Position numbers and translations under genes: made by a program. A stretch of DNA of 64,000 nt. Source: Candidatus Eiseniibacteriota bacterium (lineage in GTDB: Bacteria; Eisenbacteria; RBG-16-71-46). Shown here piece after piece: positions 1 through 16,294 of the stretch (its first letter is position 1; the number at the start of each line of letters is the position of its first letter). The notes under the pieces were generated by a model. The model was given only the letters and a program-made list of their open reading frames with translations. It was not told the DNA's origin and ran no database searches. The stretch lies in assembly GCA_044222065.1 (NCBI GenBank), contig JBGAOA010000002.1, positions 83,115 to 147,114 of the forward strand, written 5' to 3'.

Positions 1-1
1 C

Positions 2-658
2 GGCGCGCTCGCGATCGCCTCGTGCGATCCGATCGCGCTCGCGCTGCTCGAGCCGCCGGGGCACTCGGGGGCCGACATCGTCGTGGGCGAGGGGCAGTCG
101 CTCGGCAATCCGATCGGATTCGGCGGACCGTCGCTCGGCTTCTTCGCGTGCAAGAGCGCGCTCGTCCGGCGCATGCCGGGCCGCATCGTCGCCGAGACCG
201 TCGATCGCGACGGCGAACGGGGCTTCGTGCTCACGCTGCAGACGCGGGAGCAGCACATCCGGCGCGAGAAGGCGACGTCGAACATCTGCACGAACCAGGG
301 GCTGCTCGCGCTCCGCTCGACGGTCTTCATGGGGCTCCTCGGGCGGCAGGGCATGCGCGAACTCGCCGAGCTGTGCGTCCAGAAGTCGCATCACGCCGCG
401 ACGCTCGCGGCGCGAATCCCGGGATACCGGCTCGTTCACGGCGGCCCGTTCTTCCGCGAGTTCGTGCTCGAGTGCCCGGTCGAGGCGTGGACCGTCGCGC
501 GCGAAGCGCTCGCCGACGGCATCCTGGCCGGGGTGTACCTCGGCCGCTTCCGGCCGGAATGGAAGCGCTGGCTGCTCGTCGCCGTGACCGAACAGCGCAG
601 CATCGAAGAGATCGAGCGCTGGGCCGCGGCCCTGCGCCGCGCGGGAGGCGGACGATGA
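2..658 (+). CDS. gcvPA: Glycine dehydrogenase (decarboxylating) subunit 1, C-terminal part (5' truncated by the window edge)
   Basis: Frame is open from base 2 (GALAIASCDPIALALLEPPG..GADIVVGEGQSLG). Motifs FGGPSLGFFA and LQTREQHIRREKATSNICTNQ. Stop overlaps the gcvPB ATG (ATGA). Confidence 0.95.
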   Translation, partial: GALAIASCDPIALALLEPPGHSGADIVVGEGQSLGNPIGFGGPSLGFFACKSALVRRMPGRIVAETVDRDGERGFVLTLQTREQHIRREKATSNICTNQGLLALRSTVFMGLLGRQGMRELAELCVQKSHHAATLAARIPGYRLVHGGPFFREFVLECPVEAWTVAREALADGILAGVYLGRFRPEWKRWLLVAVTEQRSIEEIERWAAALRRAGGGR

Positions 659-2160
659 AGCTCGAACGCCGGCTGCTGATCGAACAGGGCGGCGAGGGCC
701 ACCGCGGTCCCGAACTGCCGCCGTGCGACGTGCCGCAGCGCCCGCTCGCGGAACTGCTGCCGGGCGCGAAGCTGCGCGAGTCGCTCGCGTTCCCCGAGGT
801 GAGCGAGCCCGAGGTCGTGCGCCACTTCCTCGAGCTTTCGACGTTGAATCACCACGTGGACAAGGGCTTCTACCCGCTCGGCTCGTGCACGATGAAGCAC
901 AATCCGAAGATCAACGACGAGATCGCATCGCTGCCCGGGTTCGCGCTTGCGCACCCGCTCGCGAGTGACGACGTGAGCCAGGGCGCGCTGCGCGTGATCT
1001 GGGAGCTGCAGAACGCGCTCGCCGCGATCACCGGTTTCGCCGCCGTGACGGCGCAGCCCGCCGCGGGCGCGCACGGCGAGATGACGGGGCTCATGCTGAT
1101 CCGCGCGTGGCACCGCTCGCGCGGCGAGGGGGAGAAGCGCCGCCGCGTGCTCGTGCCCGATTCGGCGCACGGCACGAACCCGGCGAGCGTGAACCTGCTC
1201 GGCTGGGAGACGCAGACGGTCGCTTCCGACGAGCACGGCCACGTGAACCTGGACGCGCTCGAGCGTGCGCTCGACGACACGGTCGCCGCCGTCATGTTCA
1301 CGGTGCCGAACACGCTCGGCGTGTTCGAGCGCGAGATCGTGGACGTGACCCGGCTCGCGCACGCGGCCGGCGCGCAGTGCTACATGGACGGCGCGAACCT
1401 GAACGCGCTCGTCGGCCTGCTGCGGCCGGGCGACCTCGGCTTCGACGTCATGCACATCAACGTGCACAAGACGTTCTCGACTCCGCACGGCGGCGGCGGG
1501 CCCGGCGCCGGACCGGTCGCGGTCGCGAAGCACCTCGAGCCGTTCCTGCCGATCCCGGTCGTCGAGGAGTCCGGCGGTCTGCTGCGCCGCGTCTGGGACC
1601 GCGAGCGTTCGATCGGACGCGTGCACGGATGGCACGGCAACTTCGGCATCCTCGTGCGCGCGCTCGCCTACATCCTGTCGAACGGCGCGCCGGGGCTCGC
1701 GAACGTGAGCCGCACGGCGATCCTGAACGCGAACTACCTCATGCGGCGCCTCGCCGGGACTTACGAACTCCCGCACGCCGAACACTGCATGCACGAGTGC
1801 GTGCTGTCCGGGCGGCCGCTCAAGAAGCACGGCATCAAGACGCTCGACGTGGCGAAGCGGCTGCTCGACTTCGGCGTCCACGCGCCGACGGTGTACTTCC
1901 CGCTCATCGTGGAAGAGGCGCTCATGATCGAGCCGACCGAGACGGAGACGCTGGATCGGCTGGACCACTTCGCCGAGACGATGGAGCAGATCGCGCGCGA
2001 GGCCGCCGAGAATCCCCAGCTCCTCAAGGACGCGCCGCACACGACGCCGAACCGCCGGCTCGACGAGGGCCGCGCGGCGCGCGAGCTCAAGCTCCGCTGG
2101 AGCGCGGACGCCGCGCGCCCGAGCGGCAGCGCCGCGAACGCGGAACCGACGCTGAAGTGA
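655..2160 (+). CDS. gcvPB: Glycine dehydrogenase (decarboxylating) subunit 2
   Basis: ATG at 655 within ORF 22..2160. Motifs FYPLGSCTMKHNP, QPAAGAHGE, PDSAHGTNPAS, PLP-lysine motif HINVHKTFSTPHGGGGPG, MIEPTETE. Confidence 0.97.
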   Translation: MKLERRLLIEQGGEGHRGPELPPCDVPQRPLAELLPGAKLRESLAFPEVSEPEVVRHFLELSTLNHHVDKGFYPLGSCTMKHNPKINDEIASLPGFALAHPLASDDVSQGALRVIWELQNALAAITGFAAVTAQPAAGAHGEMTGLMLIRAWHRSRGEGEKRRRVLVPDSAHGTNPASVNLLGWETQTVASDEHGHVNLDALERALDDTVAAVMFTVPNTLGVFEREIVDVTRLAHAAGAQCYMDGANLNALVGLLRPGDLGFDVMHINVHKTFSTPHGGGGPGAGPVAVAKHLEPFLPIPVVEESGGLLRRVWDRERSIGRVHGWHGNFGILVRALAYILSNGAPGLANVSRTAILNANYLMRRLAGTYELPHAEHCMHECVLSGRPLKKHGIKTLDVAKRLLDFGVHAPTVYFPLIVEEALMIEPTETETLDRLDHFAETMEQIAREAAENPQLLKDAPHTTPNRRLDEGRAARELKLRWSADAARPSGSAANAEPTLK

Positions 2161-2609
2161 AGGGCCCGGAAGTGGACGCCGGCGCAACCGGGGCCGACGC
2201 CGCTCTCGAGTGGCGCGTCGTGCCGTGGCGCGAGCGCCCCGCGCGCGCCGCCGTCGGCGTGCTGCTCGCGGCCGGGTTGTGCGCGGCGGTCGCGTCGCAG
2301 CGGCTCGGATTCGTGCCGACGCTCGCGCTCTCCGTCGCGTCGGTCGCCGCCGTCGCGCCGCTGTTCGCTTCCGCGCGCTGCCGGATCGACGGCGACGGGC
2401 CGGGCCGGCGCGGCGCGCTCGGCTGGGAGCGGCGCCGGTGGACGGACGTGCGCCGCGCGCGGCTCACCGCGCGCGCGCTCGTGCTCTCGCCCTACGCGCG
2501 CCCCCACTGGCTCGACGCCTACCGCGCGCTCGTGCTGCCGCTGCCCGCCGGCGCCGACGCGGGCTGGCGCGACCGGCTGCGCGCGACGCTGGAGCGACAT
2601 GGCCTCTGA
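2157..2609 (+). CDS. Hypothetical membrane protein (two TM helices plus a short soluble domain)
   Basis: GTG overlaps the gcvPB stop (GTGA). C-terminal part of ORF 1107..2609, with hydrophobic segments AAVGVLLAAGLCAAV and FVPTLALSVASVAAVAPLF. Confidence 0.7.
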   Translation: MKGPEVDAGATGADAALEWRVVPWRERPARAAVGVLLAAGLCAAVASQRLGFVPTLALSVASVAAVAPLFASARCRIDGDGPGRRGALGWERRRWTDVRRARLTARALVLSPYARPHWLDAYRALVLPLPAGADAGWRDRLRATLERHGL

Positions 2610-2908
2610 CGCACGGACGCTCGCGGCCGACGACCGCGCGCTGATCGAGCGCGTGGCTGCCCGGATCGCGGAGCTGCGCCTCGAGGTGCCGGCGCTCCTC
2701 ACGATCGAGAGCGGGCGCCCGCTGTCGCTGCTCGCGAGCCAGACGATGCTGTTCTTCGAGCCGATCGTGCTCGCGCTGCTCCGGCTCGACTACCGCTTCG
2801 CGCGCCTCGTCGAGGACCGTGGCGCGCTCGAGGCGCTGTCGTGCGCGATCGAGGCCGCCGTCGAGGCGCGAGGCGGCGCGGCGCGCCGCGCGGGGGGGAC
2901 GGGCGTGA
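2599..2908 (+). CDS. Small hypothetical protein (about 100 aa), read in-frame with the GlmL-like gene as assembled
   Basis: MASDARTL...LIERVAARIAELRLEVPALLTIESGRPLSLLASQTMLFFEP. A G7 run (2892-2898) precedes GTGA at 2905-2908; one G fewer would stop this ORF at 2908. Confidence 0.6.
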
Positions 2909-4716
2909 GCCTCGATCCGAACGCGATCCGCTCGATCCTCGCGACCGACTGCGGCTCGACGACGACCAAGGCGATCCTGATCGAGCGCGGCGACGACGGT
3001 TACCGTCTCGTCGTACGCGGCGAGGCGCCCACGACGGTCGAGGCCCCGCACGAGGACGTGACGCGCGGCGTGCTCAATGCGATTCGCGAGATCGAGGAGC
3101 TGGCGGGGCGGCGGATCCTCGACGGTGAGCGCATCGTGTCGCCCGCGAACGGCGACGTGGGCGTGGACCTGTACCTCTCGACCTCGAGCGCGGGCGGCGG
3201 GCTCCAGATGATGGTGTCGGGCCTCGTGCTGCAGATGACCGGCGAGAGCGCGCAGCGTGCCGCGCTCGGCGCCGGCGCGATCGTGATGGACGTGATCGCC
3301 CTCAACGACGGCCGTCGGCCGCACGAGAAGATCCGCCGGCTGCGGCAGCTGCGTCCCGACATGATTCTCATGTCCGGCGGCACGGACGGCGGCGACGTGA
3401 AGCGCGTGGCCGAGATGGCCGAACTGCTCGTGGCCGCCGATCCGCGCGCCCGGCTCGGCGCCGGCTACGAGATGCCCCTGATCTACGCGGGCAACCGCGA
3501 CGCCGCGCCGGTCGTGAGCGACAATCTCGCGCGCCGGACGGCGCTCAGCGTCGTGCCGAACCTGCGGCCGTCGCTCGAGCGCGAGAACCTGAAGCCCGCG
3601 CGCGACGCGATCCACGACCTCTTCATGGAGCACGTGATGGCGCACGCGCCGGGCTACCGGCGGCTGCGCGAGTGGTCGCCCGTGCCGATCATGCCGACGC
3701 CGGGCGCGGTCGGCCTGCTGATCGAGAAGGTCGCGCGGCGCGACGGCCTCGCGGTCGTCGGCGTGGACATCGGCGGCGCGACGACGGACGTGTTCTCGGT
3801 GTTCCAGGGCGTGTTCAACCGCACGGTGTCCGCGAACCTCGGAATGAGCTACTCGGTGTCGAACGTCATGGCGGAGGCCGGCATCGAGAACATCCTGCGC
3901 TGGGTGCCGTTCGCCGTGGACGAGGCGGAACTGCGGAACCGGATCAAGAACAAGATGATCCGCCCGACGACGATCCCGCACACGCTCGAGGACCTCGTGA
4001 TCGAGCAGGCGATCTCGCGCGAGGCGCTGCGACTCGCGCTCGAACAGCACAAGGCGCTCGCGGTCGGGCTCAAGGGCGTGCAGACCGAGCGCACGATCTC
4101 GGACATCGTGGCGCAGGAAGAGAGCGGCGCCTCGCTCGTGAACCTGCTCGACCTCGGGCTCGTCGTGGGTTCGGGCGGCGTGCTGTCGCACGCCCCGCGG
4201 CGGGCGCAGGCCGCGGCGATGATGGTGGACGCGTTCCTGCCCGAGGGGCTGACGCAGCTCGCCGTGGACAGCATCTTCATGATGCCGCAGCTCGGCGTGC
4301 TCTCGACCGTGCACGAGGAGGCGGCGGCGCAGGTGTTCGAGAAGGACTGCCTGATCCGGCTGGGCGCCGTGCTCGCGCCGATCGGGACGTCGCGACCCGG
4401 CCAGCCGTGCGTGTCGGTCGAGGTCGCCGTGCCGGGGCACGTCGCGACCGAACGCAAGGTCGCGTTCGGCGAGATGGCGCTGCTGCCGCTGCCGCCGACC
4501 GGCACCGCGCGCGTCACCGCCGTGCCCGACCGCGCGTTCGACCTCGGTCTCGGGCGCGGTCGCCCGCTCACGGCCGACGTTCCGGGCGGCGTCGTCGGCC
4601 TGATCGTGGACGCCCGCGGCCGCCGGCCGTTCACGCTCCCGGACGCGCCCGCCGCGCGGATCGCGAAGCTGCGCGAGTGGAATCGCGCGCTCGGCCTCTA
4701 CCCGCGGGAGGTGTGA
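2905..4716 (+). CDS. glmL: GlmL/MutL(glutamate mutase L)-family ASKHA (actin-fold) ATPase-like protein
   Basis: Two phosphate motifs ATDCGSTTTKA and GVDIGGATTDVFS, plus TSSAGGGLQM, SAQRAALGAGA, PDMILMSGGTDGG, IMPTPGAV and VGSGGVLSHAP. Confidence 0.85.
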   Translation: MSLDPNAIRSILATDCGSTTTKAILIERGDDGYRLVVRGEAPTTVEAPHEDVTRGVLNAIREIEELAGRRILDGERIVSPANGDVGVDLYLSTSSAGGGLQMMVSGLVLQMTGESAQRAALGAGAIVMDVIALNDGRRPHEKIRRLRQLRPDMILMSGGTDGGDVKRVAEMAELLVAADPRARLGAGYEMPLIYAGNRDAAPVVSDNLARRTALSVVPNLRPSLERENLKPARDAIHDLFMEHVMAHAPGYRRLREWSPVPIMPTPGAVGLLIEKVARRDGLAVVGVDIGGATTDVFSVFQGVFNRTVSANLGMSYSVSNVMAEAGIENILRWVPFAVDEAELRNRIKNKMIRPTTIPHTLEDLVIEQAISREALRLALEQHKALAVGLKGVQTERTISDIVAQEESGASLVNLLDLGLVVGSGGVLSHAPRRAQAAAMMVDAFLPEGLTQLAVDSIFMMPQLGVLSTVHEEAAAQVFEKDCLIRLGAVLAPIGTSRPGQPCVSVEVAVPGHVATERKVAFGEMALLPLPPTGTARVTAVPDRAFDLGLGRGRPLTADVPGGVVGLIVDARGRRPFTLPDAPAARIAKLREWNRALGLYPREV

Positions 4717-4717
4717 C

Positions 4718-5842
4718 GTGTCCGCCACCTACACGCCGGGCCTGCGCGTCACCGCCTCCGCACTCCTGCGTCGCGAGCGGCGGCTGCCGCTCAAGGGCGA
4801 AGTCCTCGTGAGCGCGGGGCAGGGCGTCGAGGCCGGAACGGTCGTCGCGCGCACCGACCTGCCGGGCAACGTGCAGACGGTGAACCTCGCGTCGCGGTTG
4901 TCGCTGGATCCGGCACGCGTCGAGAGCGCGCTCACGAAGCGCGTCGGCGAGTCGGTGCGGAAGGGCGAGACGCTCGCGGAGTCGAAGAGCCTGTTCGGGC
5001 TCGTCAAGAACTCGGTCGCCGCTCCCGCGGACGGCGTCATCGAGAGCGCCTCGCACGTCACGGGGCAGCTGATCCTGCGCGAGCCGCCGATCCCGGTCGA
5101 GGTCAACGCCTACGTGCGCGGCGTCGTCGTCGAGGTGCTGCCCGGGGAAGGCGTCGTCGTCGAGACGCACGGCGCGTTCCTGCAGGGAATCTTCGGCGTG
5201 GGCGGCGAGGCGTGCGGCCCGGTGAAGATCGCGGTGGACGATCCCGGGACCGATCTCACCCCCGACCGCATCACCGGCGAGCACCGCGGCGCCGTCGTCG
5301 TCGGCGGCGCGAAGATCTCGTTCGACGCGATCGCACGCGCGCGCGACGTCGGCGCGGCCGCGATCGTCGCCGGCGGACTCGACGATGCCGATCTCAAGCG
5401 GCTGCTCGGCCGCGACCTCGGCGTCGCGATCACCGGGTCCGAGGACCTGGGCGTGACCGTGATCGTCACCGAGGGCTTCGGCCGCATCCCGATGGCGGCC
5501 CGCGCCTGGAAGCTGCTGCGCGGCTGCGAGGGCCGCGACGCGTCCGTGAGCGGCGCGACGCAGATCCGAGCGGGCGTGATGCGCCCCGAGCTCGTGATTC
5601 CGGATCCGGCCACGAGCGCGCCCTCGGGCGAGACGGACGCGATCCCGGGCCTCGCGATCGGCGCCCAGCTGCGCGTCATCCGCGAGCCGTACTTCGGGCG
5701 AATCGGCACGGTCGTCGCGCTGCCGGCGGAGCTCCAGCCGCTCGAGACGGAGGCGCACGTGCGCGTGCTCGTGGTGGAGTTCGCCGACGGCGGCGGCCGC
5801 GTCGTCGTGCCGCGGGCGAACGTCGAACTCATCTCGTCGTGA
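4718..5842 (+). CDS. Conserved hypothetical protein with barrel-sandwich-hybrid (biotinyl/lipoyl-like) segments and a C-terminal KOW/SH3-like region
   Basis: Segments GEVLVSAGQGVEAGTVVA and VGESVRKGETLAESKS...VAAPADGVIE; C-terminus IGAQLRVIREPYFGRIGTVV...VVVPRANVELI. Starts 1 nt after the previous stop. Confidence 0.8.
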   Translation: MSATYTPGLRVTASALLRRERRLPLKGEVLVSAGQGVEAGTVVARTDLPGNVQTVNLASRLSLDPARVESALTKRVGESVRKGETLAESKSLFGLVKNSVAAPADGVIESASHVTGQLILREPPIPVEVNAYVRGVVVEVLPGEGVVVETHGAFLQGIFGVGGEACGPVKIAVDDPGTDLTPDRITGEHRGAVVVGGAKISFDAIARARDVGAAAIVAGGLDDADLKRLLGRDLGVAITGSEDLGVTVIVTEGFGRIPMAARAWKLLRGCEGRDASVSGATQIRAGVMRPELVIPDPATSAPSGETDAIPGLAIGAQLRVIREPYFGRIGTVVALPAELQPLETEAHVRVLVVEFADGGGRVVVPRANVELISS

Positions 5843-5865
5843 GCGCCGCGGCGGACGCATTGTCG

Positions 5866-5895
5866 TTGACTTCGATTCCGAGCGGTTGCTAGCTT
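5866..5895 (+). promoter_or_regulatory. Sigma70-type promoter TTGACT-N18-TAGCTT with extended TG
   Basis: TTGACT at 5866-5871, TG at 5887-5888, TAGCTT at 5890-5895, in the only sizeable gap of this gene block. Confidence 0.6.
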
Positions 5896-5969
5896 CGCCG
5901 CGATTCGCGCGGTCGCAAAGGAGTGCGGACGGGGCCTCGGCCCCGGAAAGTGAGGTGCCGTTGCGAGGG

Positions 5970-7199
5970 ATGGCGACGCGAAGGCCCGTCGGCCGCTGCA
6001 TCCTCGCCGTGCTCGCGGCCGTCGTCGCGACGTGCGCCGCGGGTCCCGTCGGCGCCGAGGAGGCCCCGCCCGACGGCGGTGCGTTCTCTCCCGCACCCGC
6101 GGTCGCCGATACGACCCCCGCCGCTCCGCGCCCGGCCTCGGGACTCGTCGCGACCGACGTGCCGAACGACGCAGGCCGCGGCATCGCGCTGCGCTGGCGG
6201 CTCTCGCCGGACGACTCGCTCGGGCTGGTCGTGCGCTACGACGTCGAGCGCTCGGAGGCGCCGAGCGGCCCGTGGGCGCTCGTGGACTCGGTGGACGCCG
6301 GCGCGAACGAGCGCGTGGACCAGTCGGTGCGGCGGAACACGGAGTACTTCTATCGCATCACGACGATCGGTCCCGGCGGGCGCGCGCCCGGACGCAGCGT
6401 GACTGGGCCCGTTCGCGCGCGCTCGTCCTGGATCAACACGACGCGCTGGAGCGTTCTCGCCCTGATGGTCGCGTTCTTCGCCTTCGTCCTCTACTACATC
6501 GCGAGCGCCCAGGCGGGGAAGAAGCCGTTCGTGCGGCGCATTCCCGGAGTGGACGCGATCGAGGAGGCGATCGGGCGCGCGACCGAGATGGGGCGCCCGG
6601 TGCTCTACGTGCCGGGCATCCTCGACATCGACGACATCCAGACCGTCGCGGGCCTCGTCATCCTGGAGTCGGTCGCGCGGCTCACGGCCAAGTACGAGAC
6701 CCCGATCACCGTGCCCGTCAGCTACCCGATCCCGTTCACGATCGCCGAAGAGATGGTGAAGGGCGGCTACCTGCACGCGGGCCGTCCCGACGCGTATCCG
6801 GGCGACAGCGTACGCTTCGTCTCGCCGGAGCAGTTCGCGTACGTCGCCGCCGTCACGGGCATCATGCTGCGCGACCGTCCCGCCGCCCACATCTTCATGG
6901 GTGCGTTCTACGGCGAGTCCCTGATGCTCGCCGAGACCGGGTTCTCGACCGGCGCGATCCAGGTCGCGGGCACCGCGAACGTTCACCAGCTGCCGTTCTT
7001 CGTCGTGGCCTGCGACTACACGCTCATCGGCGAAGAGCTGTTCGCCGCGAGCGCGTACCTGTCGGGCGAGCCTAAGCTCGTCGGCGGCCTCAAGGGCGCC
7101 GACCTCATGAAGCTCGTCGTCATCGCCATCATCGTCATCGGCTGCATCCTCGAGACGCTGCACGTCCACGGTCTCACGACGTGGATGGCGACCCAGTAG
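5970..7199 (+). CDS. Signal peptide + fibronectin type III domain + DUF6754-type membrane domain protein
   Basis: Signal-like ILAVLAAVVATCAAG; FN3 signature (ATDVPNDAGRGIALRWRLS..YDVERS..EYFYRITTIG); TM helix; then RRIPGVDAIEEAIGRATEMGRPV...QLPFFVVACDYTLIGEELFAASAYLS. Family name is from recall. Confidence 0.8.
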   Translation: MATRRPVGRCILAVLAAVVATCAAGPVGAEEAPPDGGAFSPAPAVADTTPAAPRPASGLVATDVPNDAGRGIALRWRLSPDDSLGLVVRYDVERSEAPSGPWALVDSVDAGANERVDQSVRRNTEYFYRITTIGPGGRAPGRSVTGPVRARSSWINTTRWSVLALMVAFFAFVLYYIASAQAGKKPFVRRIPGVDAIEEAIGRATEMGRPVLYVPGILDIDDIQTVAGLVILESVARLTAKYETPITVPVSYPIPFTIAEEMVKGGYLHAGRPDAYPGDSVRFVSPEQFAYVAAVTGIMLRDRPAAHIFMGAFYGESLMLAETGFSTGAIQVAGTANVHQLPFFVVACDYTLIGEELFAASAYLSGEPKLVGGLKGADLMKLVVIAIIVIGCILETLHVHGLTTWMATQ

Positions 7200-7209
7200 G
7201 AGCGCGCGC

Positions 7210-7860
7210 GTGAAACGGGAAGTGCCGCTGTTCATCACCGCCGTGATCGGGCTGTTCATGATCCTGTCGTTCTTCGTGCCGCACGAGTGGGTGAGCGTGC
7301 CCGCGGACTTCCTGCAGCTGTGCGCGGTGATCGCGGTCGCGTTCGGCTACGTGCTCGGCGGCGCGAACGTGCTGCGCGTGAACTTCGACGGCATCTCGAA
7401 GCGCGAGCCCGGCTGGCCCTTCAAGCTCGTGCTCGTGCTCGCGCTCCTCACGACGGTCGCGGTCGGTGCGATGGAGGGCGAGGGGTTCCTGAATCCCGGC
7501 ACGCGCAGCAAGTGGATCTACGACAACGTCTATTCGCCGATGAGCGCGACGATGTTCGCGCTGCTCGCGTTCTTCATCGCCTCGGCCGCGTTCCGCGCGT
7601 TCCGCATCCGCACGCTCGAGGCCGGCTTCCTCGCCGCGGCCGCGCTGATCGTGATGCTGGGGCGCGTGCCGATCGGGAACGTCATGACGTCGTGGCTGCC
7701 CGAGCCGCTGCGGCTCCCCGTCGTGCAGGAGTGGATCATGGAGATCCCGCAGAACGCCTCGAAGCGCGCGATCCTCATGGGCGCGGCGCTCGGCGTCATG
7801 GCGACGGGGCTGCGCGTGATCCTCGGCATCGAGCGTTCCTACCTGAGCGGGGAGGACTGA
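7210..7860 (+). CDS. Conserved polytopic membrane protein (about 6 TM)
   Basis: Multiple hydrophobic helices; SATMFALLAFFIASAAFRAFR and LRVILGIER motifs; AGGAG SD upstream. Confidence 0.85.
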   Translation: MKREVPLFITAVIGLFMILSFFVPHEWVSVPADFLQLCAVIAVAFGYVLGGANVLRVNFDGISKREPGWPFKLVLVLALLTTVAVGAMEGEGFLNPGTRSKWIYDNVYSPMSATMFALLAFFIASAAFRAFRIRTLEAGFLAAAALIVMLGRVPIGNVMTSWLPEPLRLPVVQEWIMEIPQNASKRAILMGAALGVMATGLRVILGIERSYLSGED

Positions 7861-7861
7861 C

Positions 7862-8704
7862 GTGAAGCTGCTGCACTCGCTCGAGCGCGTGGACCGGCGC
7901 TGGCTGTTCCTGCTGATGGGACTGCTCGTACTGCTGCCGCTGCTCTTCCCGCTCAGCCTGCCGATCTTCGTCTCGCAGCCGACGCAGGGCTTCTACGACG
8001 CGATCGCGAAGATCCCCGACGGCTCCACGGTGCTGTTCTCGTGCGACTACGATCCCGGCTCGATCCCCGAGATGGTGCCGATGACGCGCTCGGCGCTGCG
8101 CCAGATGATGCGCAAACGCTGCAAGCTCGTCGTCACGGTGCTGTGGCCCGGCGGGCCGGGGCTCGTGGACCTCGTGATCCGCGACCTGCTCGCCGAGGAG
8201 TTCCCGGACCGGACGTACGGCGTGGACTGGGTGAACCTCGGCTACAAGTCGGGCAACGAGGCCGTGATGGTGCTCATGGGGCAGGGCATCGCGAACGCGT
8301 TCCCGAAGGACTACCGCGGCAACGACGTCAACGCGCTGCCGCTCATGCGCACGGTGCGCGACTACTCGAGCTTCCCGATCCTCGTGAACATCTCGTCGGG
8401 CTACCCGGGCACGAAGGAGTGGGTCCAGCAGGTGCAGGCGCGATTCCACCTGCCGATGGTCGCGGGCGTCACCGCCGTGAGCGCGCCGGAGTTCTATCCG
8501 TACCTCCAGTCGGGCCAGCTGCTCGGACTGCTCGGCGGCATGGCGGGCGCGGCCGAGTACGAGAAGCTCGTGGGCGACCTGCCCGGCCCCGGCACGGCGC
8601 AGCGCGGCATGGACGCGCAGTCGCTCGCGCACGTGTTCGTGGCGCTCTGCATCCTGCTCGGCAACGTCGTTCAGTGGTCGAGGCGGCGGGGGGCCGGCTC
8701 GTGA
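7862..8704 (+). CDS. Conserved membrane-anchored protein (TM, soluble alpha/beta domain, TM)
   Basis: DRRWLFLLMGLLVLLPLLFP; DYDPGSIPEM; YGVDWVNLGY; YPYLQSGQLLGLLGGMAGAAEY. Starts 1 nt after the upstream stop. Confidence 0.85.
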   Translation: MKLLHSLERVDRRWLFLLMGLLVLLPLLFPLSLPIFVSQPTQGFYDAIAKIPDGSTVLFSCDYDPGSIPEMVPMTRSALRQMMRKRCKLVVTVLWPGGPGLVDLVIRDLLAEEFPDRTYGVDWVNLGYKSGNEAVMVLMGQGIANAFPKDYRGNDVNALPLMRTVRDYSSFPILVNISSGYPGTKEWVQQVQARFHLPMVAGVTAVSAPEFYPYLQSGQLLGLLGGMAGAAEYEKLVGDLPGPGTAQRGMDAQSLAHVFVALCILLGNVVQWSRRRGAGS

Positions 8705-9387
8705 GTCTGCACGTCTCGGCCGACCTCGGCATCTGGTGCGGCGCGCTGCTGACGCTGTGCGTGTTCAGCTTCCTCTACAAGGACAATCCGCTCTACAAAT
8801 TCGCCGAGCACCTGTTCGTGGGCGTGTCGGCCGGCTACTACATCATCCTGAACTTCTGGACCGTGATCTGGCCGAACCTGCTGCAGCCGCTCGCAAGGTC
8901 GTTCGCGGGCCGCGGCGACACGGCGCGCACGGGCATGTTCGCCGCCGAACTCGGCGACTACCGCGGACTGCTGCTCGTGCCGGCGCTGCTCGGACTGCTG
9001 CTGCTCACGCGGCTGTTCGGGAAGATCGGGTGGCTCTCGCGCTGGTCGCTCGCCGTCATCATCGGCGTGTACGCCGGCATCAAGACGACGGGCTTCGCGC
9101 AGGGCGACTTCGTCGCGCAGCTGCAGGCGAGCCTGCAGCCGCTCTGGACCGGACAGCTCGGCTCGAGCGTGAGCGCGATCCTGTTCACGATCGGGCTCAT
9201 CACGTCGCTGCTGTTCTTCTTCTTCAGCCGCGAGCACCGGGGCGGCCTCGGCGTGCTGTCGCGCGTCGGCATGCTGTTCCTCATGGTGGGCTTCGGCGCG
9301 GGGTACGGCTACACCGTGATGTCGCGGGTGTCGCTGCTGATCGGCCGGTTCCAGTTCCTGATCGAGCAGTGGCTCGGCCTGCGCTGA
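8701..9387 (+). CDS. Conserved polytopic membrane protein
   Basis: GTG at 8701 overlaps the previous stop; GALLTLCVFSFLYKDNPLYKFAEHLFVGVSAGY ... GFGAGYGYTVMSRVSLLIGRFQFL. Confidence 0.85.
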   Translation: MSLHVSADLGIWCGALLTLCVFSFLYKDNPLYKFAEHLFVGVSAGYYIILNFWTVIWPNLLQPLARSFAGRGDTARTGMFAAELGDYRGLLLVPALLGLLLLTRLFGKIGWLSRWSLAVIIGVYAGIKTTGFAQGDFVAQLQASLQPLWTGQLGSSVSAILFTIGLITSLLFFFFSREHRGGLGVLSRVGMLFLMVGFGAGYGYTVMSRVSLLIGRFQFLIEQWLGLR

Positions 9388-9418
9388 GCGCGGGCGCCGT
9401 ACCGCCGGGGCGGACGCC

Positions 9419-10165
9419 GTGCTGAACCTGTGGTGCGACGACGGCCACCCGGCGCGCGAGAACATGCGCCGCGACGCGGCGCTGCTCGCGGCGGCCGAGG
9501 ACGGCGCGGCGCCGGTGCTGCGGCTCTTCCGCTTCGATCCGCCGGGCCTCACGCTCGGGCACGCGCAGGACCCCGCGGCCGAACTCGACCTCGAGGCGTG
9601 CGAGCGCGACGGCGTCGAGTGGGCCGTCCGCCCGACGGGCGGGCGCGCGATCTTCCACGAGCACGAGTGGACGTACGCGTTCGCGTCCGCCGCCGACGAC
9701 CCGGAGTGGGGCGGCGACCTCGCGGTCGCGTACGAGAAGGTGTCGCGGCTCGTGCGCGACTCGCTCGCGGATCTCGGCGTGCCGGTCGCGTTCGCGGGCG
9801 GACATCGCGGGCGGCTCGAAGGCGACCGCGCGAGCGCGGCCTGCTTCGCCTCGACCGCGCGCCACGAACTCGTCGTCGCGGGGCGCAAGCTCGCCGGGAG
9901 CGCGCAGCGACGGACGAGCCGCGCGTACCTGCAGCAGGGCAGCGTGCTGCTCGGCCCGGGGCACCTGCGGCTCGCGGAATTCCTGGCGCTGCCCGACGCG
10001 CGACGGGCAGCGGCGCGCGATGCGCTCGCGCGGTCGGCCACGGACGCCGGGGCGTGGATCCCGCCGGCGACGCCGCTCGGGCGCTGGGCCGATGCGATCG
10101 AGCGCGTGCGGCCCGGCGTTCATCGCGAGAACGGCGACGCCGGCCGACGGTGGTTGACCCTGTGA
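9419..10165 (+). CDS. lipM: Lipoate-protein ligase family protein, LipM-like octanoyltransferase
   Basis: ENMRRDAALL, RPTGGRAIFH, SAACF (Cys at the LipM position), ELVVAGRKLAGSAQRR, LQQGSVL; 248 aa with no LplA C-terminal domain. Start uncertain. Confidence 0.8.
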   Translation: MLNLWCDDGHPARENMRRDAALLAAAEDGAAPVLRLFRFDPPGLTLGHAQDPAAELDLEACERDGVEWAVRPTGGRAIFHEHEWTYAFASAADDPEWGGDLAVAYEKVSRLVRDSLADLGVPVAFAGGHRGRLEGDRASAACFASTARHELVVAGRKLAGSAQRRTSRAYLQQGSVLLGPGHLRLAEFLALPDARRAAARDALARSATDAGAWIPPATPLGRWADAIERVRPGVHRENGDAGRRWLTL

Positions 10166-10183
10166 GAACGCGATTCCTATACT
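10154..10183 (+). promoter_or_regulatory. Sigma70-type promoter TTGACC-N18-TATACT for the ABC transporter operon
   Basis: TTGACC at 10154-10159 and TATACT at 10178-10183; AT-rich hexamers in a very GC-rich background, 45 nt upstream of ATG 10228. Confidence 0.65.
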
Positions 10184-10227
10184 GCCGCGCACTTTCGCCG
10201 CCGCACCGCTCCACGGGAGACTTCCAC

Positions 10228-12051
10228 ATGCTCCGCCTCGTGCCGGGCCGGTTCCGTCGCGCGATCCTGATTCCGCTGCTCGCCCTCGCCGGTTGCGGTG
10301 GCCCGGCGCCTTCTCGCGACGCCTGGGTGGATCCCTATCCGCTGCCGGCCGACACGATGACCGTGGCCGCGCCCGAACTCGGGGTGCACGGCGGGCGGTT
10401 CGTGATCGCGGCGACGTCGAGCCCGAAGACCTTCAACCCCGTGATGGGGAGCGAGTCGTCGACGAACGACGTCACGTCTCGGCTGTTCGTCGGACTCGCG
10501 GACTGGGACTACCGCACGCATCAGGACTACGGCGTGCTCGCGAAGTCGTGGGAGCGGAGCCCCGACGGACTGACCTACACGTTCCACCTGCGGCGAGGCG
10601 CGGCGTTCTCGGACGGACACGCGCTGACCTCCGACGACGTGCTGTTCACCGCTGCGGTGACGCTCGACTCGACGGTCGGCGCGTCGCTGCGCGCGTCGCT
10701 CCAGTCCGCCGGACGGCCGTTCGTCTTCGAGGCGCCCGACTCGTACACCGTGGTCGTGCGGCTCGCGGGCCCGCACCGGCTCGCGATCGCCGCGATCGGG
10801 TCGCTGCGGGTTCTGCCGAAGCACCGACTCGAGGCCGCGTGGAAGGAGGGCCGCTTCCCCTCGTCCTACGGCACCGACACGCCGCCCGAGAGTCTCGTCA
10901 CGAGCGGGCCGTGGATCCTGCGCTCCTACCTGCCGCAGGAGCGCACGGTCCTCGCACGAAACCCGTACTGGCTCGGCGTGGACGCGCGCGGAAACCGGCT
11001 GCCGTACCTCGACGAGGTCGTGCTCGTCGTGGTGCCCGATCAGGCCGCGGCGGCGCTGAAGTTCCAGTCGGGCGAGGTCGACGGACTCGACAACGTGAAG
11101 AACGAGGACTACTCGACGTACGAGCAGGGGCAGGAGAAGGGCGACTACCATCTCTACGACCTCGGCCCGGGACTCAACACGTCGTTCCTGTGGTTCAACC
11201 TGCGGCTCGCCGAGGAATCGGCACCGGGGCGGAAGGCGGGGTCGCCCTACGCCGGGGAGGTCCCGTACTCGTGGTTCTCGCGCGTCGACTTCCGGCGCGC
11301 CGTCTCGCACGCGATCGATCGCGACGCGATCATCCGCGGTCCGTACTTCGGAGACGCCGTCAAGAACTGGGCGCACATCACGCCCGGCAACCCCGTGTGG
11401 TCGCTGACCGATGTCGTGCACTACGACTACGACCCCGAGCGCGCCAGGACGCTGCTCGCCGGGCTCGGCTGGAAGGACACCGACGGCGACGGACTGCTCG
11501 AAGACGAGCACGGCCGCACGATCCGCTTCACGATCAAGACGAACGGCGACAACAAGACGCGCATGGACGTCCTGACGATGATCCACGACGACCTGCGCAA
11601 GGTCGGCGTGGACGCGGTCCCCGCGGGCAGCGATTTCAACACGCTGACGACGAACTTCCGGACCGACTTCCAGTACGAGGCGGCGCTGCTCGGGCTCGGT
11701 TCGGCCGTGCCGCCCGATCCCGGCATCGGCATGAACTTCTGGCGCTCCTCCGGCGTCATCCACTACTGGGCCCCGAAGCAGAAGCGCCCGATGAACGCGA
11801 TCGAGGCGCGGCTCGACTCGCTCGCGGACGCGCACATCGCCGCGCTCGACGACGCGACGGCGCGCGAGACGTACCGGGCGCTCCAGACCACGGTCAACGA
11901 GAACGCGTTCGTGATCTACCTGCCGAGCCAGGTCGTGCGCATCCCGGTCCGGAACGGCTTCGGGAACCTCTCGCCGAACGTGGTGCCGCACCGCCTGCTC
12001 TGGAACATCGACCAGGTGTTCGTGAAGCCGGGCGGCCGCCGCCGGTCCTGA
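10228..12051 (+). CDS. Peptide/nickel ABC transporter substrate-binding lipoprotein (OppA/AppA, family 5)
   Basis: Lipobox LALAGC; SSPKTFNP, LAKSWERSPDGLTYTFHLRRGAAFSDG, TSGPW, FRRAVSHAIDR. Confidence 0.92.
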   Translation: MLRLVPGRFRRAILIPLLALAGCGGPAPSRDAWVDPYPLPADTMTVAAPELGVHGGRFVIAATSSPKTFNPVMGSESSTNDVTSRLFVGLADWDYRTHQDYGVLAKSWERSPDGLTYTFHLRRGAAFSDGHALTSDDVLFTAAVTLDSTVGASLRASLQSAGRPFVFEAPDSYTVVVRLAGPHRLAIAAIGSLRVLPKHRLEAAWKEGRFPSSYGTDTPPESLVTSGPWILRSYLPQERTVLARNPYWLGVDARGNRLPYLDEVVLVVVPDQAAAALKFQSGEVDGLDNVKNEDYSTYEQGQEKGDYHLYDLGPGLNTSFLWFNLRLAEESAPGRKAGSPYAGEVPYSWFSRVDFRRAVSHAIDRDAIIRGPYFGDAVKNWAHITPGNPVWSLTDVVHYDYDPERARTLLAGLGWKDTDGDGLLEDEHGRTIRFTIKTNGDNKTRMDVLTMIHDDLRKVGVDAVPAGSDFNTLTTNFRTDFQYEAALLGLGSAVPPDPGIGMNFWRSSGVIHYWAPKQKRPMNAIEARLDSLADAHIAALDDATARETYRALQTTVNENAFVIYLPSQVVRIPVRNGFGNLSPNVVPHRLLWNIDQVFVKPGGRRRS

Positions 12052-12063
12052 GACGCGGCGCGC

Positions 12064-13022
12064 ATGCGCACGTTCGTCCTGCGCCGTGTCCTCCAGGTCG
12101 TACCCCTGCTGTTCGGACTCACCGCGATCACCTTCCTGCTCGTCGCGCTCGCGCCCGGTGACTTCCTGAACACGCTCGCCGAGAACCCGGCGATCACGCC
12201 GCAGGTGCTCGAGTCCATGCGCCGCAATTTCGGTCTCGACCGGCCGGTGTGGGTGCAGTACGGGCTCTACCTGTGGAATCTGCTGCACGGCGACTTCGGT
12301 CAGTCGTTCTCGCGTCACCAGCCGGTGTTCGCGGTGCTGCGCGAGGGGCTCGCGAATACGCTGCTGCTCGCGGGCGCGGCCGCGATCGTGACGTGGGGGC
12401 TCGCGATCCCGCTCGGAGTGATCGCCGCCGTGCGGCAGAACACGGTCGTGGACCGCTCGCTCGGCGTTCTCGCCTACGTCTGGCTGTCCGTGCCCGAGGT
12501 CCTGTCCGGGCTGCTGCTGCTGTTGTTCGCGGCGCGAACCGGCTGGTTCCCGACCGGCGGCATGCACTCGCTCGACTTCGAGCGGCTCGGGCCGCTCGCG
12601 CGCGCGGGGGACCTGCTCCACCATCTCGCGCTGCCGGCGATCGCCGTGGGGCTCGTGCCGCTCGCGAGCCGCATGCGCCAAACGCGCGCGAACCTGCTCG
12701 ACGTGCTGCTCGACTACGTGACGACGGCGCGCGCGAAGGGGCTCGATGAGCGGACCGTGGTCGTCAGCACGCGCTCCGCAACGCGCTCAACCCGCTCGTC
12801 ACGATGTTCGGGTTCACGCTCGGCTCGCTCGTCTCGGGTTCGCTCGTCGCCGAGATCGTGTTCTCGTGGCCCGGCCTCGGTCGCATCACGTACGAGGCGA
12901 TCCTCACGCAGGACCTGTACCTCGTGGTCGGGGCGGCTCATGGCCGCGTGCGTGCTCGTCGCGGCAACCTCGTCGCCGACGTCCTGCTCGCGGTCGCCGA
13001 CCCGCGGATCCGCCATGACTGA
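12064..13022 (+). CDS. Peptide ABC transporter permease (OppB/DppB type), frameshifted as assembled
   Basis: MRTFVLRRVLQ..FGLDRPVWVQY..DYVTTARAKGL; continues in another frame as NPLVTMFGFTLGSLVSGSLVAEIVFSWPGLG..NLVADVLLAVADPRIR. Indels near 12705-12775 and 12930-12965. Confidence 0.85.
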
Positions 13023-14112: not shown

Positions 14113-15120
14113 GCGAACCGCTGCTCGAGGTGCGCGACCTGCGTACGTGGTTCCACACCGACGACGGCGTCGTGCGCGCGGTGGACGGCGTGTCCTTCGC
14201 GATCGGCGCCGGCGAGACGCTCGCCGTGGTGGGCGAGTCGGGGAGCGGCAAGAGCGTCACGTCGCTGTCGGTGCTGCGGCTCGTGCCGCGACCGCCCGGC
14301 CGCTTCGAGAGCGGCGCGATCCTGCTTCGCGGTCGCGACCTGCTGCGGGTGCCGGAGGACGAGATGCGCCGCGTGCGCGGCAAGGACGTCTCGATGATCT
14401 TCCAGGAGCCGATGACGTCGTTGAACCCGGTCTACACGTGCGGCGAGCAGATCATCGAGGCCGTGATGCTGCACGACCGCCTGCCGCGCGCCGCCGCGCG
14501 CGAGCGTGCGATCGAGATGCTGCGGCTCGTCGGCATCCCGTCGCCCGAGCAGCGCGTGGACGAGTACCCGCACCAGATGTCGGGCGGGATGCGCCAGCGC
14601 GTCATGATCGCCATGGCGCTCGCGTGCCGGCCCGCGCTGCTGATCGCGGACGAGCCGACGACGGCGCTCGACGTCACGATCCAGGCGCAGATCCTGGACC
14701 TGCTGCGCTCGCTGCGCGCGGAACTCGGCATGGCGGTGATGCTCATCACGCACGACCTCGGCGTCGTCGCCGAGGTCGCCGACCGCGTCGCCGTGATGTA
14801 CGCGGGGCAGGTCGTCGAATCGTGTCCGGTCGAAGCGGCGTTCCGGCGCACGCTCCATCCGTACACCGCAGGGCTGCTCGCCTCGCGGCCGACGCTCGGC
14901 GAGACGCGCGAGAGGCTCCGCGTCATCCCGGGATCCGTGCCGAATCCGGCGCGCTTCCCGGACGGCTGCCGCTTCCACCCGCGCTGTCCGCTCGCGACCG
15001 ACCGCTGCCGCGCCGAGATGCCGGAGCTCGTTGAGTTCGAGCCCGGGCACGCCGTGCGCTGCCATCGTGCGGCCGAGATCGCCGCCGGCGCGGCGTCGGC
15101 GCTCGCCGAGGAGCGCCGCG

Positions 15121-15128
<8 letters not shown>
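14109..15128 (+). CDS. Peptide ABC transporter ATP-binding protein (OppD/DppD type)
   Basis: Walker [36 protein letters not shown] and GCRFHPRC tail. Confidence 0.95.
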
Positions 15129-16119
<991 letters not shown>

Positions 16120-16294
16120 TCCGCGTTGGGGAATAGGCCCCGCCTCGCGGGGCCGCCCACGCCAATTGGCCCACGATCGAGGCCGTGCGCGCACGCCATC
16201 GCCGCCGGCCCCGGGCGCGATCGCGCCGCCTAACTCCTCGCCGAGCAATCGTTCGCGACGATTTCCGGAGGCGGTGCGCCGGCCCGCGCGCGAT

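Follow-up and report, generated by a model that had tools for sequence, protein, structure and literature searches.

An ASKHA ATPase unit and DUF6754 membrane cassettes in Candidatus Eisenbacteria, one form of a widespread two-part system

The GlmL/MutL proteins, accessory factors of B12-dependent glutamate (methylaspartate) mutase, and the Or-4 proteins of ornithine degradation belong to the same Pfam family, and have the same ASKHA fold, as the ATPase of the gene block described here. GlmL, EutA and the diol-dehydratase reactivase have a proposed chaperone or reactivation role. Other described systems resemble single parts of the block: RnfC and NqrA are peripheral cytoplasmic subunits of membrane complexes, while ABC importers in which one ATPase serves several permeases, and the group II ECF transporters, provide an analogy of organization only. 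A further analogy, and again no more than that, is to the PilM-PilN/PilO and FtsA-type scaffolds, in which ASKHA proteins dock on bitopic membrane proteins. The first-pass annotation of this DNA knew of no functional description of such a module, and we likewise found none in searchable papers.

The window analyzed here is a stretch of 64,000 nucleotides from a soil and sludge bacterium, Candidatus Eisenbacteria. All module genes and the lipM-like gene after them lie on the plus strand (Table 1). Of the eight tightly packed same-strand genes counted at first pass, the packing, the strand and the eight products stand, but they are encoded by only seven open reading frames (ORFs): the small protein sp2 and the ATPase form a single uninterrupted frame (g2) in the window, whereas they are separate ORFs in all 43 related loci in which both parts were detected. 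The GTG start of g1 overlaps the stop codon of gcvPB, which matches GcvP2_C and GDC-P in Pfam, and the 3′ flank is an LplA/LipB-superfamily gene (LplA-B_cat, E 1.5e-25). Upstream lie tdh, kbl, gcvT and gcvH, and downstream SBP_bac_5, permease and oligo_HPY ATPase genes, as also in genome G039, giving the operon order tdh-kbl-gcvT-gcvH-gcvPA-gcvPB-[module]-lipM-opp-type ABC importer. The module looks like an insertion into a threonine/glycine catabolic operon and is likely coexpressed with amino acid catabolism in this genome. Short contigs from the RNA libraries of three studies map to parts of g1 to g7 with 0 to 3 mismatches among the listed records, and one spans the g1/g2 junction; these may reflect transcription of the module, with DNA carry-over as an alternative source.

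Table 1. Features of the module and its 3′ neighbor, in window coordinates
Feature	Position	Strand	Length	Spacing	Description	Basis
g1	2157-2609	+	150 aa	overlaps gcvPB stop by 4 nt	small membrane protein, two hydrophobic segments, 80-residue basic C-terminal domain	ORF, hydropathy
g2	2599-4716	+	705 aa	11-nt overlap with g1		
sp2	2599-2937	+	about 112 aa		one hydrophobic stretch	residues 1-112 of g2
g2 core	2938-4716	+			MutL/GlmL-family ASKHA ATPase with C-terminal extension	PF13941
g3	4718-5842	+	374 aa	1 nt after g2	cytoplasmic partner, three domains	AF2 model, structure matches, weak Pfam hits
g4	5886-7199	+	437 aa	43 nt after g3, by longest ORF	signal/anchor helix, periplasmic FN3, TM, predicted cytoplasmic alpha/beta DUF6754, TM	PF20539, AF2 model
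g5	7210-7860	+	216 aa	10 nt after g4	polytopic membrane protein, about 6 TM	hydropathy
g6	7862-8704	+	280 aa	1 nt after g5	bitopic at both ends: TM, 218-residue periplasmic domain, TM	hydropathy and charge; 56-sequence alignment
g7	8701-9387	+	228 aa	4-nt overlap with g6	polytopic membrane protein, about 5-6 TM	hydropathy
lipM-like	9419-10165	+	248 aa	31 nt after g7		

Residues 113 to 584 of g2 align end to end with the Pfam MutL family (PF13941; 416.6 bits, E 1.6e-124), and all nucleotide-binding motifs are present. The phosphate-1, phosphate-2 and adenosine motifs are intact and invariant across 32 sequences, with D117, G119-K124, S196-Q203, G260/G261/D263/G265, D390-D397 and S525-A532 (except residue 529) unchanged, and the retention of these motifs predicts an ATPase-competent protein. 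The Pfam match and the source name "glutamate mutase L" would make g2 a genuine GlmL, an accessory of a B12-dependent glutamate or ornithine mutase. However, compared with the GlmL-type models (PF13941, NF040745, NF040744 and TIGR01319), g2 falls below all three NCBIfam cutoffs, with 216.4 bits against 475 for the GlmL equivalog, 158 against 204 for TIGR01319 and 206 against 600 for the remaining model. It also carries a conserved C-terminal extension of 120 residues, which neither the Pfam MutL nor the NCBIfam GlmL models cover and in which several residues are invariant or nearly so in the same 32 sequences. The mutase E subunit (PF06368) was found in none of 41 genomes, including G000, which extends the first-pass remark that no mutase partner is present in the window, and the constant partners of the ATPase are instead g3, to which it is always paired or fused, and the membrane genes with which it is coinherited. 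We consider the identification as a genuine GlmL refuted for practical purposes. The two small proteins upstream are more restricted: homologues of g1, which matches nothing in Pfam or NCBIfam, precede MutL in 37 of 80 loci and make g1 an accessory to the ATPase unit that is specific to Eisenbacteria, and sp2, which has no Pfam match, was not detected in Zixibacteria or Ignavibacteria loci.

The partner protein g3 was modeled with AF2 (pLDDT 87.6) as an N-terminal barrel-sandwich hybrid, a central swiveling beta/beta/alpha domain and a C-terminal KOW/SH3-like domain (KOW matches, Z about 8). The first of these, residues 49 to 123, superposes among the VIA matches on the N-terminal barrel-sandwich of RnfC (PF13375; 8ahx_C, Z 7.7, rmsd 2.5, 64 aligned, 25% identity) and NqrA (PF05896; 4u9o_A, Z 7.2), although Z values near 7 to 8 are in the range of common arrangements. 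Weak Pfam hits are to Biotin_lipoyl, NQRA_N and RnfC_N. The latter two, the presence of PF13375 or PF05896 in a few fused homologues, and the similar size of g5 and g7 as two small polytopic proteins could together be read as signs of kinship to the Rnf/Nqr ion pumps, but without their cofactors, with g3 in the place of RnfC/NqrA, g5/g7 in that of RnfA/E, and ATP instead of redox energy. This reading is highly improbable given that profile-profile comparison of g5/g7 with RnfA/RnfE of related genomes returned a probability of 1% or less, against 90% for the RnfA-RnfE control. Genuine Rnf-Nqr genes occur elsewhere in G000, their distribution is unrelated to that of the module, and g3 has no recognized nucleotide, flavin or Fe-S domain. 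By analogy with RnfC and NqrA, g3 would nonetheless sit at the cytoplasmic face of a membrane complex as a peripheral subunit.

The central domain of g3 (residues 152 to 299) matches the swiveling phosphohistidine domain of PEP-utilizing enzymes such as PTS enzyme I, rifampin phosphotransferase and, in its C-terminal domain, Geobacillus pyruvate kinase; the matches are 2wqd_A (PTS enzyme I; Z 9.2, rmsd 2.8, 108 aligned), 5hv1_A (Z 8.4) and 2e28_A (Z 7.8). This suggests a mobile domain that moves between two sites and relays a conformational or chemical signal. In contrast to the phosphohistidine domains, no conserved phospho-accepting histidine is evident in 61 sequences at the position judged equivalent by motif alone: after the invariant T251-E252-G253-F254-G255, the four commonest residues are R (32), H (8), S (6) and E (6). 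A role for g3 as a lipoyl or biotinyl carrier was rejected, as the barrel-sandwich hairpin has no conserved lysine in these sequences (K 34, R 22, S 4, H 1). Among long g3 homologues, 56 of 57 carry PF13941 and are MutL-g3 fusions of about 1,000 aa. The sources named for these fusions are Planctomycetota, Neomarinimicrobiota and Cloacimonadota; MutL and g3 function as one unit.

The position of the module raises the question of whether it works for the glycine cleavage system or for lipoylation, perhaps by transport or energy supply to GcvH/LipM; at first pass, an energized membrane complex (transporter, secretion or energy-conserving module) linked to glycine or lipoyl metabolism was proposed. 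In favor are the 4-nt overlap with gcvPB and a gcvPB-module-lipM order in many Eisenbacteria-type loci, gcvPB accompanying MutL in 28 of 80 loci and lipM accompanying g7 in 55 of 80. The L077 genome appears to keep this order, judging from a gcvPB contig number equal to the L077 record number, and in genome G040 a lipM-like gene is still found at the 3′ end where the cassettes have moved. However, genome G038 has no module, and there lipM directly follows gcvPB, so gcv-lipM appears to be the natural unit, with the module inside it. These flanks are also of the Eisenbacteria type only: the module stands without them in five Zixibacteria/Ignavibacteria loci, and in the genomes of L072 (Ignavibacteria) and L075 (Zixibacteria) the contig numbers of gcvPB are not the ones that the record names of the two loci suggest, a correspondence that we infer. 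K or R at the g3 hairpin does not track lipM, and no glycine riboswitch was found. The proposed link is thus not supported and appears very unlikely, and the module is not likely to take a direct part in either process.

The membrane cassette comprises g4 to g7. The true start of g4 is likely the ATG at 5970; its product matches DUF6754 (PF20539) with 373.8 bits, and the AF2 model (pLDDT 87.3) has helices at 35-50, 185-209 and 396-424, an FN3 domain at 85-178, and strands alternating with helices at 220-393. The FN3 assignment is supported by a profile search of PDB sequences and by fold matches (Z 13.3, rmsd 2.6, 103 aligned); all matches listed in the two fold searches are FN3 and none speaks to the fold of DUF6754. 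The charge distribution places the DUF6754 domain in the cytoplasm, and 43 of its residues, many of them polar, are invariant across 84 sequences. Both polytopic subunits have conserved basic cytoplasmic loops. In g5, which has no Pfam or PDB relative, the cytoplasmic motif S125-A126-x2-R129-x-F131-R132 is invariant in a 64-sequence alignment; in g7, which has no PDB relative and a weak, subthreshold TMTC_DUF1736 hit in only 6 of 37 members, L25-Y26-x-D28-N29-P30, E36, R104, H179, R209 and R216 are invariant in all 37. No Pfam or PDB relative was found for g6, and by Pfam, NCBIfam or PDB profiles none of g4 to g7 is detectably related to any family of transporters, secretion proteins or ion pumps. 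These results bear out the domain calls made at first pass for g2 (GlmL-like ASKHA ATPase), g3 (barrel-sandwich and KOW-like) and g4 (FN3 and DUF6754), as well as the TM-domain-TM topology of g6 and the polytopic nature of g5 and g7.

Gene neighborhoods were compared across 80 loci from other species, retrieved via g4. All four membrane genes are present in 72 loci, MutL, g3 and g4 in 61, and all six core genes in 56 (53 in simple colinear order and 3 multicassette), a clustering far beyond chance. This conserved order, together with co-occurrence and the MutL-g3 fusions, upholds the original view that the cytoplasmic ATPase unit and the membrane subunits belong together. Of 41 related genomes, 34 have MutL together with DUF6754, one has MutL alone, and in 6 neither was found; because it was unfound in these six, three of which are 94 to 95% complete or have gcvPB and lipM contiguous, the system appears dispensable. 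In Zixibacteria and Ignavibacteria loci (L060, L070, L072, L075 and L087), one MutL and g3 are followed by two or three tandem cassettes, and in G040 one contig carries g1-sp2-MutL-g3-lipM and others carry four stand-alone cassettes, g1 remaining with the ATPase genes; the soluble half and the membrane half can therefore be separated as modules. Between paralogous cassettes of one genome, identity is 57% for DUF6754, 47% for g7 and FN3, and 42% for g5 and the g6 periplasmic domain. That DUF6754 is the most conserved part of the cassette is as expected if it contacts the single-copy ATPase pair.

Several functions could be built from these parts. The block might be an envelope-building or export machine, in which the ATPase pair powers a cassette that moves or anchors a lipid, glycan or surface protein and FN3 and g6 form a periplasmic scaffold. 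The exported FN3 and periplasmic g6 domains, the presence in many phyla, the self-contained Zixibacteria/Ignavibacteria modules without substrate-catabolic neighbors and one Zixibacteria locus adjoining dcw cell division genes are consistent with this, but two to four diverged cassettes per genome on one ATPase pair are more easily explained as substrate-specific modules than as one housekeeping assembly line. A third cassette type also lacks FN3 and the system is dispensable, and we regard this function as unlikely. A chaperone or repair factor modeled on GlmL and the reactivases, whereby the ATPase and g3 open, assemble or reactivate a membrane complex that uses another energy source or is itself an enzyme via DUF6754, seems distinctly unlikely. 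It would accommodate the MutL/GlmL membership of the ATPase, several cassettes served by one pair, and the 43 invariant DUF6754 residues, perhaps the sign of an active or ligand site. Against it, MutL and g3 are conserved equally with the cassette and strictly coinherited, the ATPase subfamily has a C-terminal domain of its own and a constant partner that does not accompany GlmL, and no cofactor-dependent enzyme family was recognized in any subunit (Pfam, NCBIfam).

We tentatively favor, as a plausible, still uncertain, explanation, a translocation machine that is driven by ATP and whose membrane cassettes can be exchanged. The layout is transporter-like, with two polytopic subunits and a periplasmic domain tethered by TM helices. 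As in ABC and ECF systems, one energizing unit accompanies several diverged membrane modules, in tandem or elsewhere in the genome, but the ATPase here is of the ASKHA type and no module protein matches ABC_tran, BPD_transp or ECF families. The placement of an actin-fold protein at the cytoplasmic face with membrane proteins bearing periplasmic domains recalls PilM and FtsA, which belong to different ASKHA families and lack polytopic partners of this type. Counting against transport by this ATPase, we know of no ASKHA-driven transporter, and its characterized relatives have been proposed to act as reactivating chaperones and not as transport motors. Flanking genes outside Eisenbacteria are heterogeneous and give no hint of a substrate; in this sample, the peptide-importer neighborhood is of the Eisenbacteria type only (30 of 80 loci, none in Zixibacteria/Ignavibacteria).

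In the mechanism we propose, the ASKHA (actin/Hsp70-fold) ATPase would bind and hydrolyze ATP and, with its fixed partner g3, form a cytoplasmic energizing unit to which the Eisenbacteria lineage adds two small accessory proteins. The subunits g5 and g7 would form the membrane path, g6 would supply a periplasmic domain, and g4 would supply the periplasmic FN3 and the very conserved cytoplasmic DUF6754 domain. The ATPase-g3 pair would dock at the cytoplasmic face, most likely on DUF6754, and ATP-driven motion of the g3 swiveling domain would bring about substrate translocation across the inner membrane. Complex formation with the cassette, the docking site, transport activity and substrate class are all inferred. 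With this block, Eisenbacteria carry their own form of a widespread, never-studied two-part system, whose cassettes may be exchangeable specificity modules with one ATPase pair common to all, much as ABC permeases can share an ATPase.

The block between gcvPB and the lipM-like ligase gene consists of seven plus-strand reading frames in DNA of ~72% GC, with successive junctions, counted from gcvPB, of -4, -11, +1, +43, +10, +1, and -4 nt and then +31 nt to the ligase gene. The first-pass annotation had counted eight genes. That count stands for the lineage, where the small protein sp2 is encoded by a separate gene in 43/43 related loci in which both parts were detected, and falls for the window itself, where sp2 forms the first 112 residues of g2 and is continuous with the ATPase, with no stop between them, which gives seven.

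Features of the module, its flanks, and the microcompartment locus (window positions)
Feature	Position	Strand	Description
gcvPB	ends 2160	+	5' flank of module
g1	2157-2609	+	150 aa; two hydrophobic segments and a basic tail
g2	2599-4716	+	705 aa; Pfam MutL PF13941 at residues 113-584 (model positions 1-450), 416.6 bits, threshold 27
g3	4718-5842	+	barrel-sandwich/KOW protein
g4	5886-7199	+	FN3 + DUF6754 (PF20539 at residues 179-432, 373.8 bits, threshold 27)
g5	7210-7860	+	polytopic membrane protein
g6	7862-8704	+	218-residue domain flanked by two TM helices
g7	8701-9387	+	polytopic membrane protein
lipM-like gene	9419-10165	+	LplA/LipB superfamily; 3' flank of module
BMC-H shell gene	16668-16991
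BMC-H shell gene	17019-17318
EutN/CcmL pentamer gene	17326-17631
Aldehyde dehydrogenase	17636-19051

The ATPase part of g2 (MutL) belongs to the Pfam family that takes in GlmL, the accessory protein of a B12-dependent mutase, but it scores below every curated GlmL-type cut-off (216.4 bits versus 475 for the GlmL equivalog NF040745, 206 versus 600 for the Or-4 model, and 158 versus 204.05 for TIGR01319). The mutase E subunit (PF06368) was found in 0 of 41 related genomes, including that of the window (94% complete), and no glutamate mutase subunit (GlmE/GlmS) is encoded within the window, bearing out the earlier remark that a mutase partner is missing; it is hardly credible that this protein is a true GlmL. 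In 32 MutL sequences from several phyla there is no variation at D117, G119-K124, S196-Q203, D390-D397, and S525-A532 (except residue 529), and g2 carries all three ASKHA motifs, DxGxTxxK, DxGGxTxD, and GGxxxxxx, which we take to be the phosphate-1, phosphate-2, and adenosine motifs. Because these nucleotide-binding motifs are invariant, the MutL subfamily is expected to bind and hydrolyze ATP. Neither the Pfam MutL model nor the NCBIfam GlmL models cover a conserved C-terminal extension of 120 residues, and sequence and profile searches of the PDB returned no solved structure related to MutL.

The partner of this ATPase, g3, yielded an AF2 model (pLDDT 87.6) with three domains. The barrel-sandwich hybrid has its best fold matches in RnfC (Z 7.7) and NqrA (Z 7.2; VIA), the swivelling beta/beta/alpha domain is nearest the phosphohistidine domain of PTS enzyme I (Z 9.2, rmsd 2.8, 108 aligned) and also matches rifampin phosphotransferase and the extra domain of Geobacillus pyruvate kinase, and the KOW/SH3-like domain finds fold matches at a Z of about 8; these moderate values indicate fold, not function. 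Although the swivelling domain is folded like the mobile domain of PEP-utilizing enzymes, the phospho-accepting His conserved in those enzymes was not seen as a conserved residue among 61 g3 sequences at the position judged equivalent by motif reading. Two strictly invariant stretches, T251-E-G-F-G255 and G279-x-T-Q-I-R-A-G-V-x-R-P-E291, mark a putative functional site, and PDB sequence and profile searches with g3 gave nothing meaningful. We also considered g3 as a lipoyl carrier and ruled this out: its score against the lipoyl/biotinyl carrier family PF00364 is below threshold (16.4 versus 22.1 bits), and the hairpin lysine at position 90 is not conserved (K 34, R 22, S 4, and H 1 among the 61 sequences), with K or R there bearing no relation to a lipM neighbor.

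Among long g3 homologues, 56 of 57 are single MutL-g3 polypeptides, with source names that include Planctomycetota, Neomarinimicrobiota, and Cloacimonadota; the linker of one such fusion (P0001) is suspicious, while another (P0054) and the clusters with many members look genuine. In a single further record of 707 aa (P0002), a short and unusual linker connects a full g3 with FN3 and the beginning of a DUF6754 protein, after which the record breaks off prematurely; it could be a real fusion or a stop codon lost in assembly. That the ATPase pair, MutL with g3, serves as a chaperone or reactivase is quite unlikely.

The remaining four genes form a membrane cassette. The AF2 model of g4 (pLDDT 87.3) comprises an N-terminal helix, the FN3 domain (fold match Z 13.3), a TM helix, an alternating strand/helix domain at residues 220-393, and a last TM helix. 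Four basic residues come after the TM helix that succeeds FN3, a topology that places FN3 on the outer side of the membrane and DUF6754 in the cytoplasm in the predicted model. Searches with the whole g4 model (Foldseek and VIA-align) and a PDB profile search matched FN3 only, and an ESM Atlas search with residues 205-400, excluding PF20539, produced no usable match. For g5, g6, and g7, no relatives were found in Pfam, NCBIfam, or PDB sequences; member-by-member Pfam scans gave scattered weak matches, none consistent (Acyl_transf_3 in 12/64, TMD0_ABC in 10/64, TMTC_DUF1736 in 6/37). Internal paralogy of g4 with g6 and of g5 with g7 was rejected (hhalign probability 0.4% each), and PADLOC defense models matched none of the seven module proteins (0 families at E up to 0.01).

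Two known kinds of membrane machine were compared with this cassette. ABC transporters pair an ATPase with recognized permease families that are absent from the module: ABC_tran, BPD_transp, ABC2, and FecCD found no match among g1 to g7, and the ABC genes from 10210 onward are a separate Opp-type system. For an Rnf/Nqr-like ion pump, the barrel-sandwich domain is the one part of g3 that resembles RnfC/NqrA (Pfam E about 0.05). Among the membrane subunits, only 2/64 g5 members give a weak PF02508 match (E 0.066), and homology of g5 and g7 was rejected in hhalign comparisons with RnfA and RnfE from relatives (<=1%, versus 90% for the RnfA-RnfE control), which makes such a pump very improbable.

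The distribution of the proteins indicates that they form one unit, as had been proposed from the sequence. DUF6754 (PF20539) occurs in 34/41 related genomes and 0/14 control genomes, and MutL (PF13941) in 35/41, with the two together in 34/41. Only G007 (88% complete) has MutL without DUF6754, and both went unfound in six genomes (G023, G025, G029, G032, G033, and G038), although the contigs of G032 and G033 end at gcvPB, so that in these two the module may be missing through a gap in the assembly. When one genome per species was scanned, at least 303 stretches with a g4 relative were recovered; of the best 80 loci, 72 have the full set of four membrane genes, 61 have MutL, g3, and g4, and 56 have all six core genes (53 simple colinear and 3 multicassette), most of the incomplete loci being short contigs. 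More widely, the g3 profile matches 3449, 2324, and 1065 cluster representatives among 1.84 billion at E <= 1e-3, 1e-10, and 1e-30, respectively, and the DUF6754 profile matches 7428 of 8000 scored candidate 90%-identity clusters at E <= 1e-10. At least one component is labeled in Eisenbacteria, Zixibacteria, Ignavibacteria, Latescibacterota, Planctomycetota, Neomarinimicrobiota, and Cloacimonadota.

The unit has two separable halves. Five loci from Zixibacteria and Ignavibacteria (L060, L070, L072, L075, and L087) encode one MutL and one g3 followed by 2 to 3 tandem, diverged cassettes, the last cassette type lacking FN3. One related genome, G040, carries g1-sp2-MutL-g3-lipM on one contig and a complete cassette on each of four others, so that a genome can keep the soluble unit apart from its cassettes. 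In G039, gcvT-gcvH-gcvPA-gcvPB-sp2-MutL-g3 stand together and the cassette sits elsewhere, upstream of lipM and an Opp-type ABC importer. When paralogous cassettes within a genome are compared, identity is 57% for the DUF6754 domain versus 42-47% for g5, g6, g7, and FN3, so that the cytoplasmic DUF6754 domain is the most constrained part, and this conservation suggests that it forms the face that has to match the single-copy ATPase pair.

Several neighbors of the module and its cassettes deserve mention. Genes for a histidine kinase and a sigma-54-dependent response regulator directly follow g3 on the same strand in G039 (L119, G039:C180, 11137-14275) and likewise follow a G040 cassette (L113, G040:C33, 4343-7257), and the system may be under two-component/sigma-54 control in these genomes. 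The third cassette of L060 (9872-10789) is apparently a DUF6754 gene alone, after which come a GHMP-kinase-like gene and then defense-like genes (DruA, NurA, and HerA-type). Another Zixibacteria locus (L061) has a divergent GldA/GldF/GldG-like ABC set (ABC_tran, ABC-2 permease, DUF7088 + ABC_transp_aux; 1-2423, minus strand) upstream of the module and dcw genes (ftsZ, ftsQ, murC, murG, and ftsW) downstream. Upstream of a stand-alone G040 cassette (L114, G040:C97, 6110-8993), genes on the minus strand (9223-13715) encode a methyltransferase of the MttB family, a protein with a Met_synt_B12 activation domain, a corrinoid protein that binds B12, and a homocysteine S-methyltransferase-type protein; the set resembles a demethylation pathway equipped with a cassette of its own. 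A general link between MttB and the module was ruled out, since MTTB occurs in only 7/41 genomes, four of them without the module, and does not track it.

In the window's genome, the module lies within a threonine/glycine catabolic operon: tdh (452 bits versus 380), kbl (682 versus 493), gcvT, gcvH, gcvPA, and gcvPB are upstream, and downstream of lipM come an SBP_bac_5 protein, permease genes, and two oligo_HPY ABC ATPases, so that the operon ends in a peptide-type importer. The first-pass annotation had read this position as a link to glycine or lipoyl metabolism, a proposal that the comparison did not support. In G038, which lacks the module, gcvPB is followed directly by lipM; in the L072 (Ignavibacteria) and L075 (Zixibacteria) genomes, gcvPB is on contigs numbered differently from those of the module loci (the contig correspondence being inferred), where the module is flanked by unrelated genes; g3 is not a lipoyl-type carrier; and no Rfam family, and hence no glycine riboswitch, was found on the 10 kb upstream or in window positions 1-20000. 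These four results argue that the gcv/lipM position is an insertion and speak against a mechanistic link. Flanks in Zixibacteria and Ignavibacteria are heterogeneous, with no recurring partner, and the peptide-type ABC neighborhood was seen only in Eisenbacteria-type loci. The 4-nt overlap of gcvPB with g1 suggests coexpression with amino-acid catabolism in the Eisenbacteria lineage and leaves a small probability for a substrate link, for example through uptake of an amino-acid-type compound; the metabolic link as first proposed is improbable.

Directly behind the Opp-type ABC ATPases is a small bacterial-microcompartment locus, with more small ORFs to 20178. Given that tdh and kbl precede the gcv genes, the locus could conceivably specify a compartment that handles aminoacetone or aldehydes. 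The Pfam survey also picked out a 617-aa protein with homocysteine S-methyltransferase and MTHFR domains (34390-36240, minus strand) and a SurA-like PPIase protein of unusual length (1177 aa; 45118-48648, plus strand).

Fifteen DNA runs from wastewater, sludge, bioreactor, and biofilm metagenomes each contain at least half of the sampled words. Short contigs from RNA libraries (four libraries, three studies; 0 to 3 mismatches among the records listed) map to parts of g1 to g7, and one, at 2507-2693, spans the g1/g2 junction. These contigs are compatible with transcription, do not show its level or strand, and could stem from DNA carry-over; stretches lacking them are uninformative on expression.

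The best reading of the module, held tentatively and at somewhat less than even chances, is a translocation machine driven by ATP. Its MutL-g3 unit would bind the membrane complex from the cytoplasm, with DUF6754 as the most likely docking site; the mobile domain of g3 would couple ATP turnover to a g5/g7 membrane core, g6 and FN3 would act in the periplasm, and the cassettes would supply specificity. A machine that builds the envelope or exports material is an unlikely alternative to such translocation. Somewhat less probable than the translocation machine itself is that it represents a new class of primary-active transporters, powered by an ASKHA (actin/Hsp70-fold) ATPase in place of an ABC, P-type, or V/F-type motor, in which the swivelling three-domain g3 would pass ATP-driven movement to the conserved cytoplasmic DUF6754 dock and four-gene cassettes added to a single ATPase pair would tune specificity.

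We found no paper on DUF6754, and the accessible parts of the literature on the MutL subfamily (PF13941/TIGR01319/GlmL-like ATPases with membrane partners) held none that was relevant, in line with the earlier statement that no functional description of the module is known. What the window adds is that the gcv/lipM position, with G038 as the control, is an insertion, that the lipoyl-carrier idea fails, that the two halves can be unlinked, as in G040, and that the cytoplasmic DUF6754 domain is the most constrained part among paralogous cassettes. The database label "glutamate mutase L" on the ATPase misdirects metabolic reconstructions of mostly uncultured groups, and if the ATPase pair drives the cassette, these organisms would employ a non-textbook energy-coupling principle for membrane transport or envelope work.
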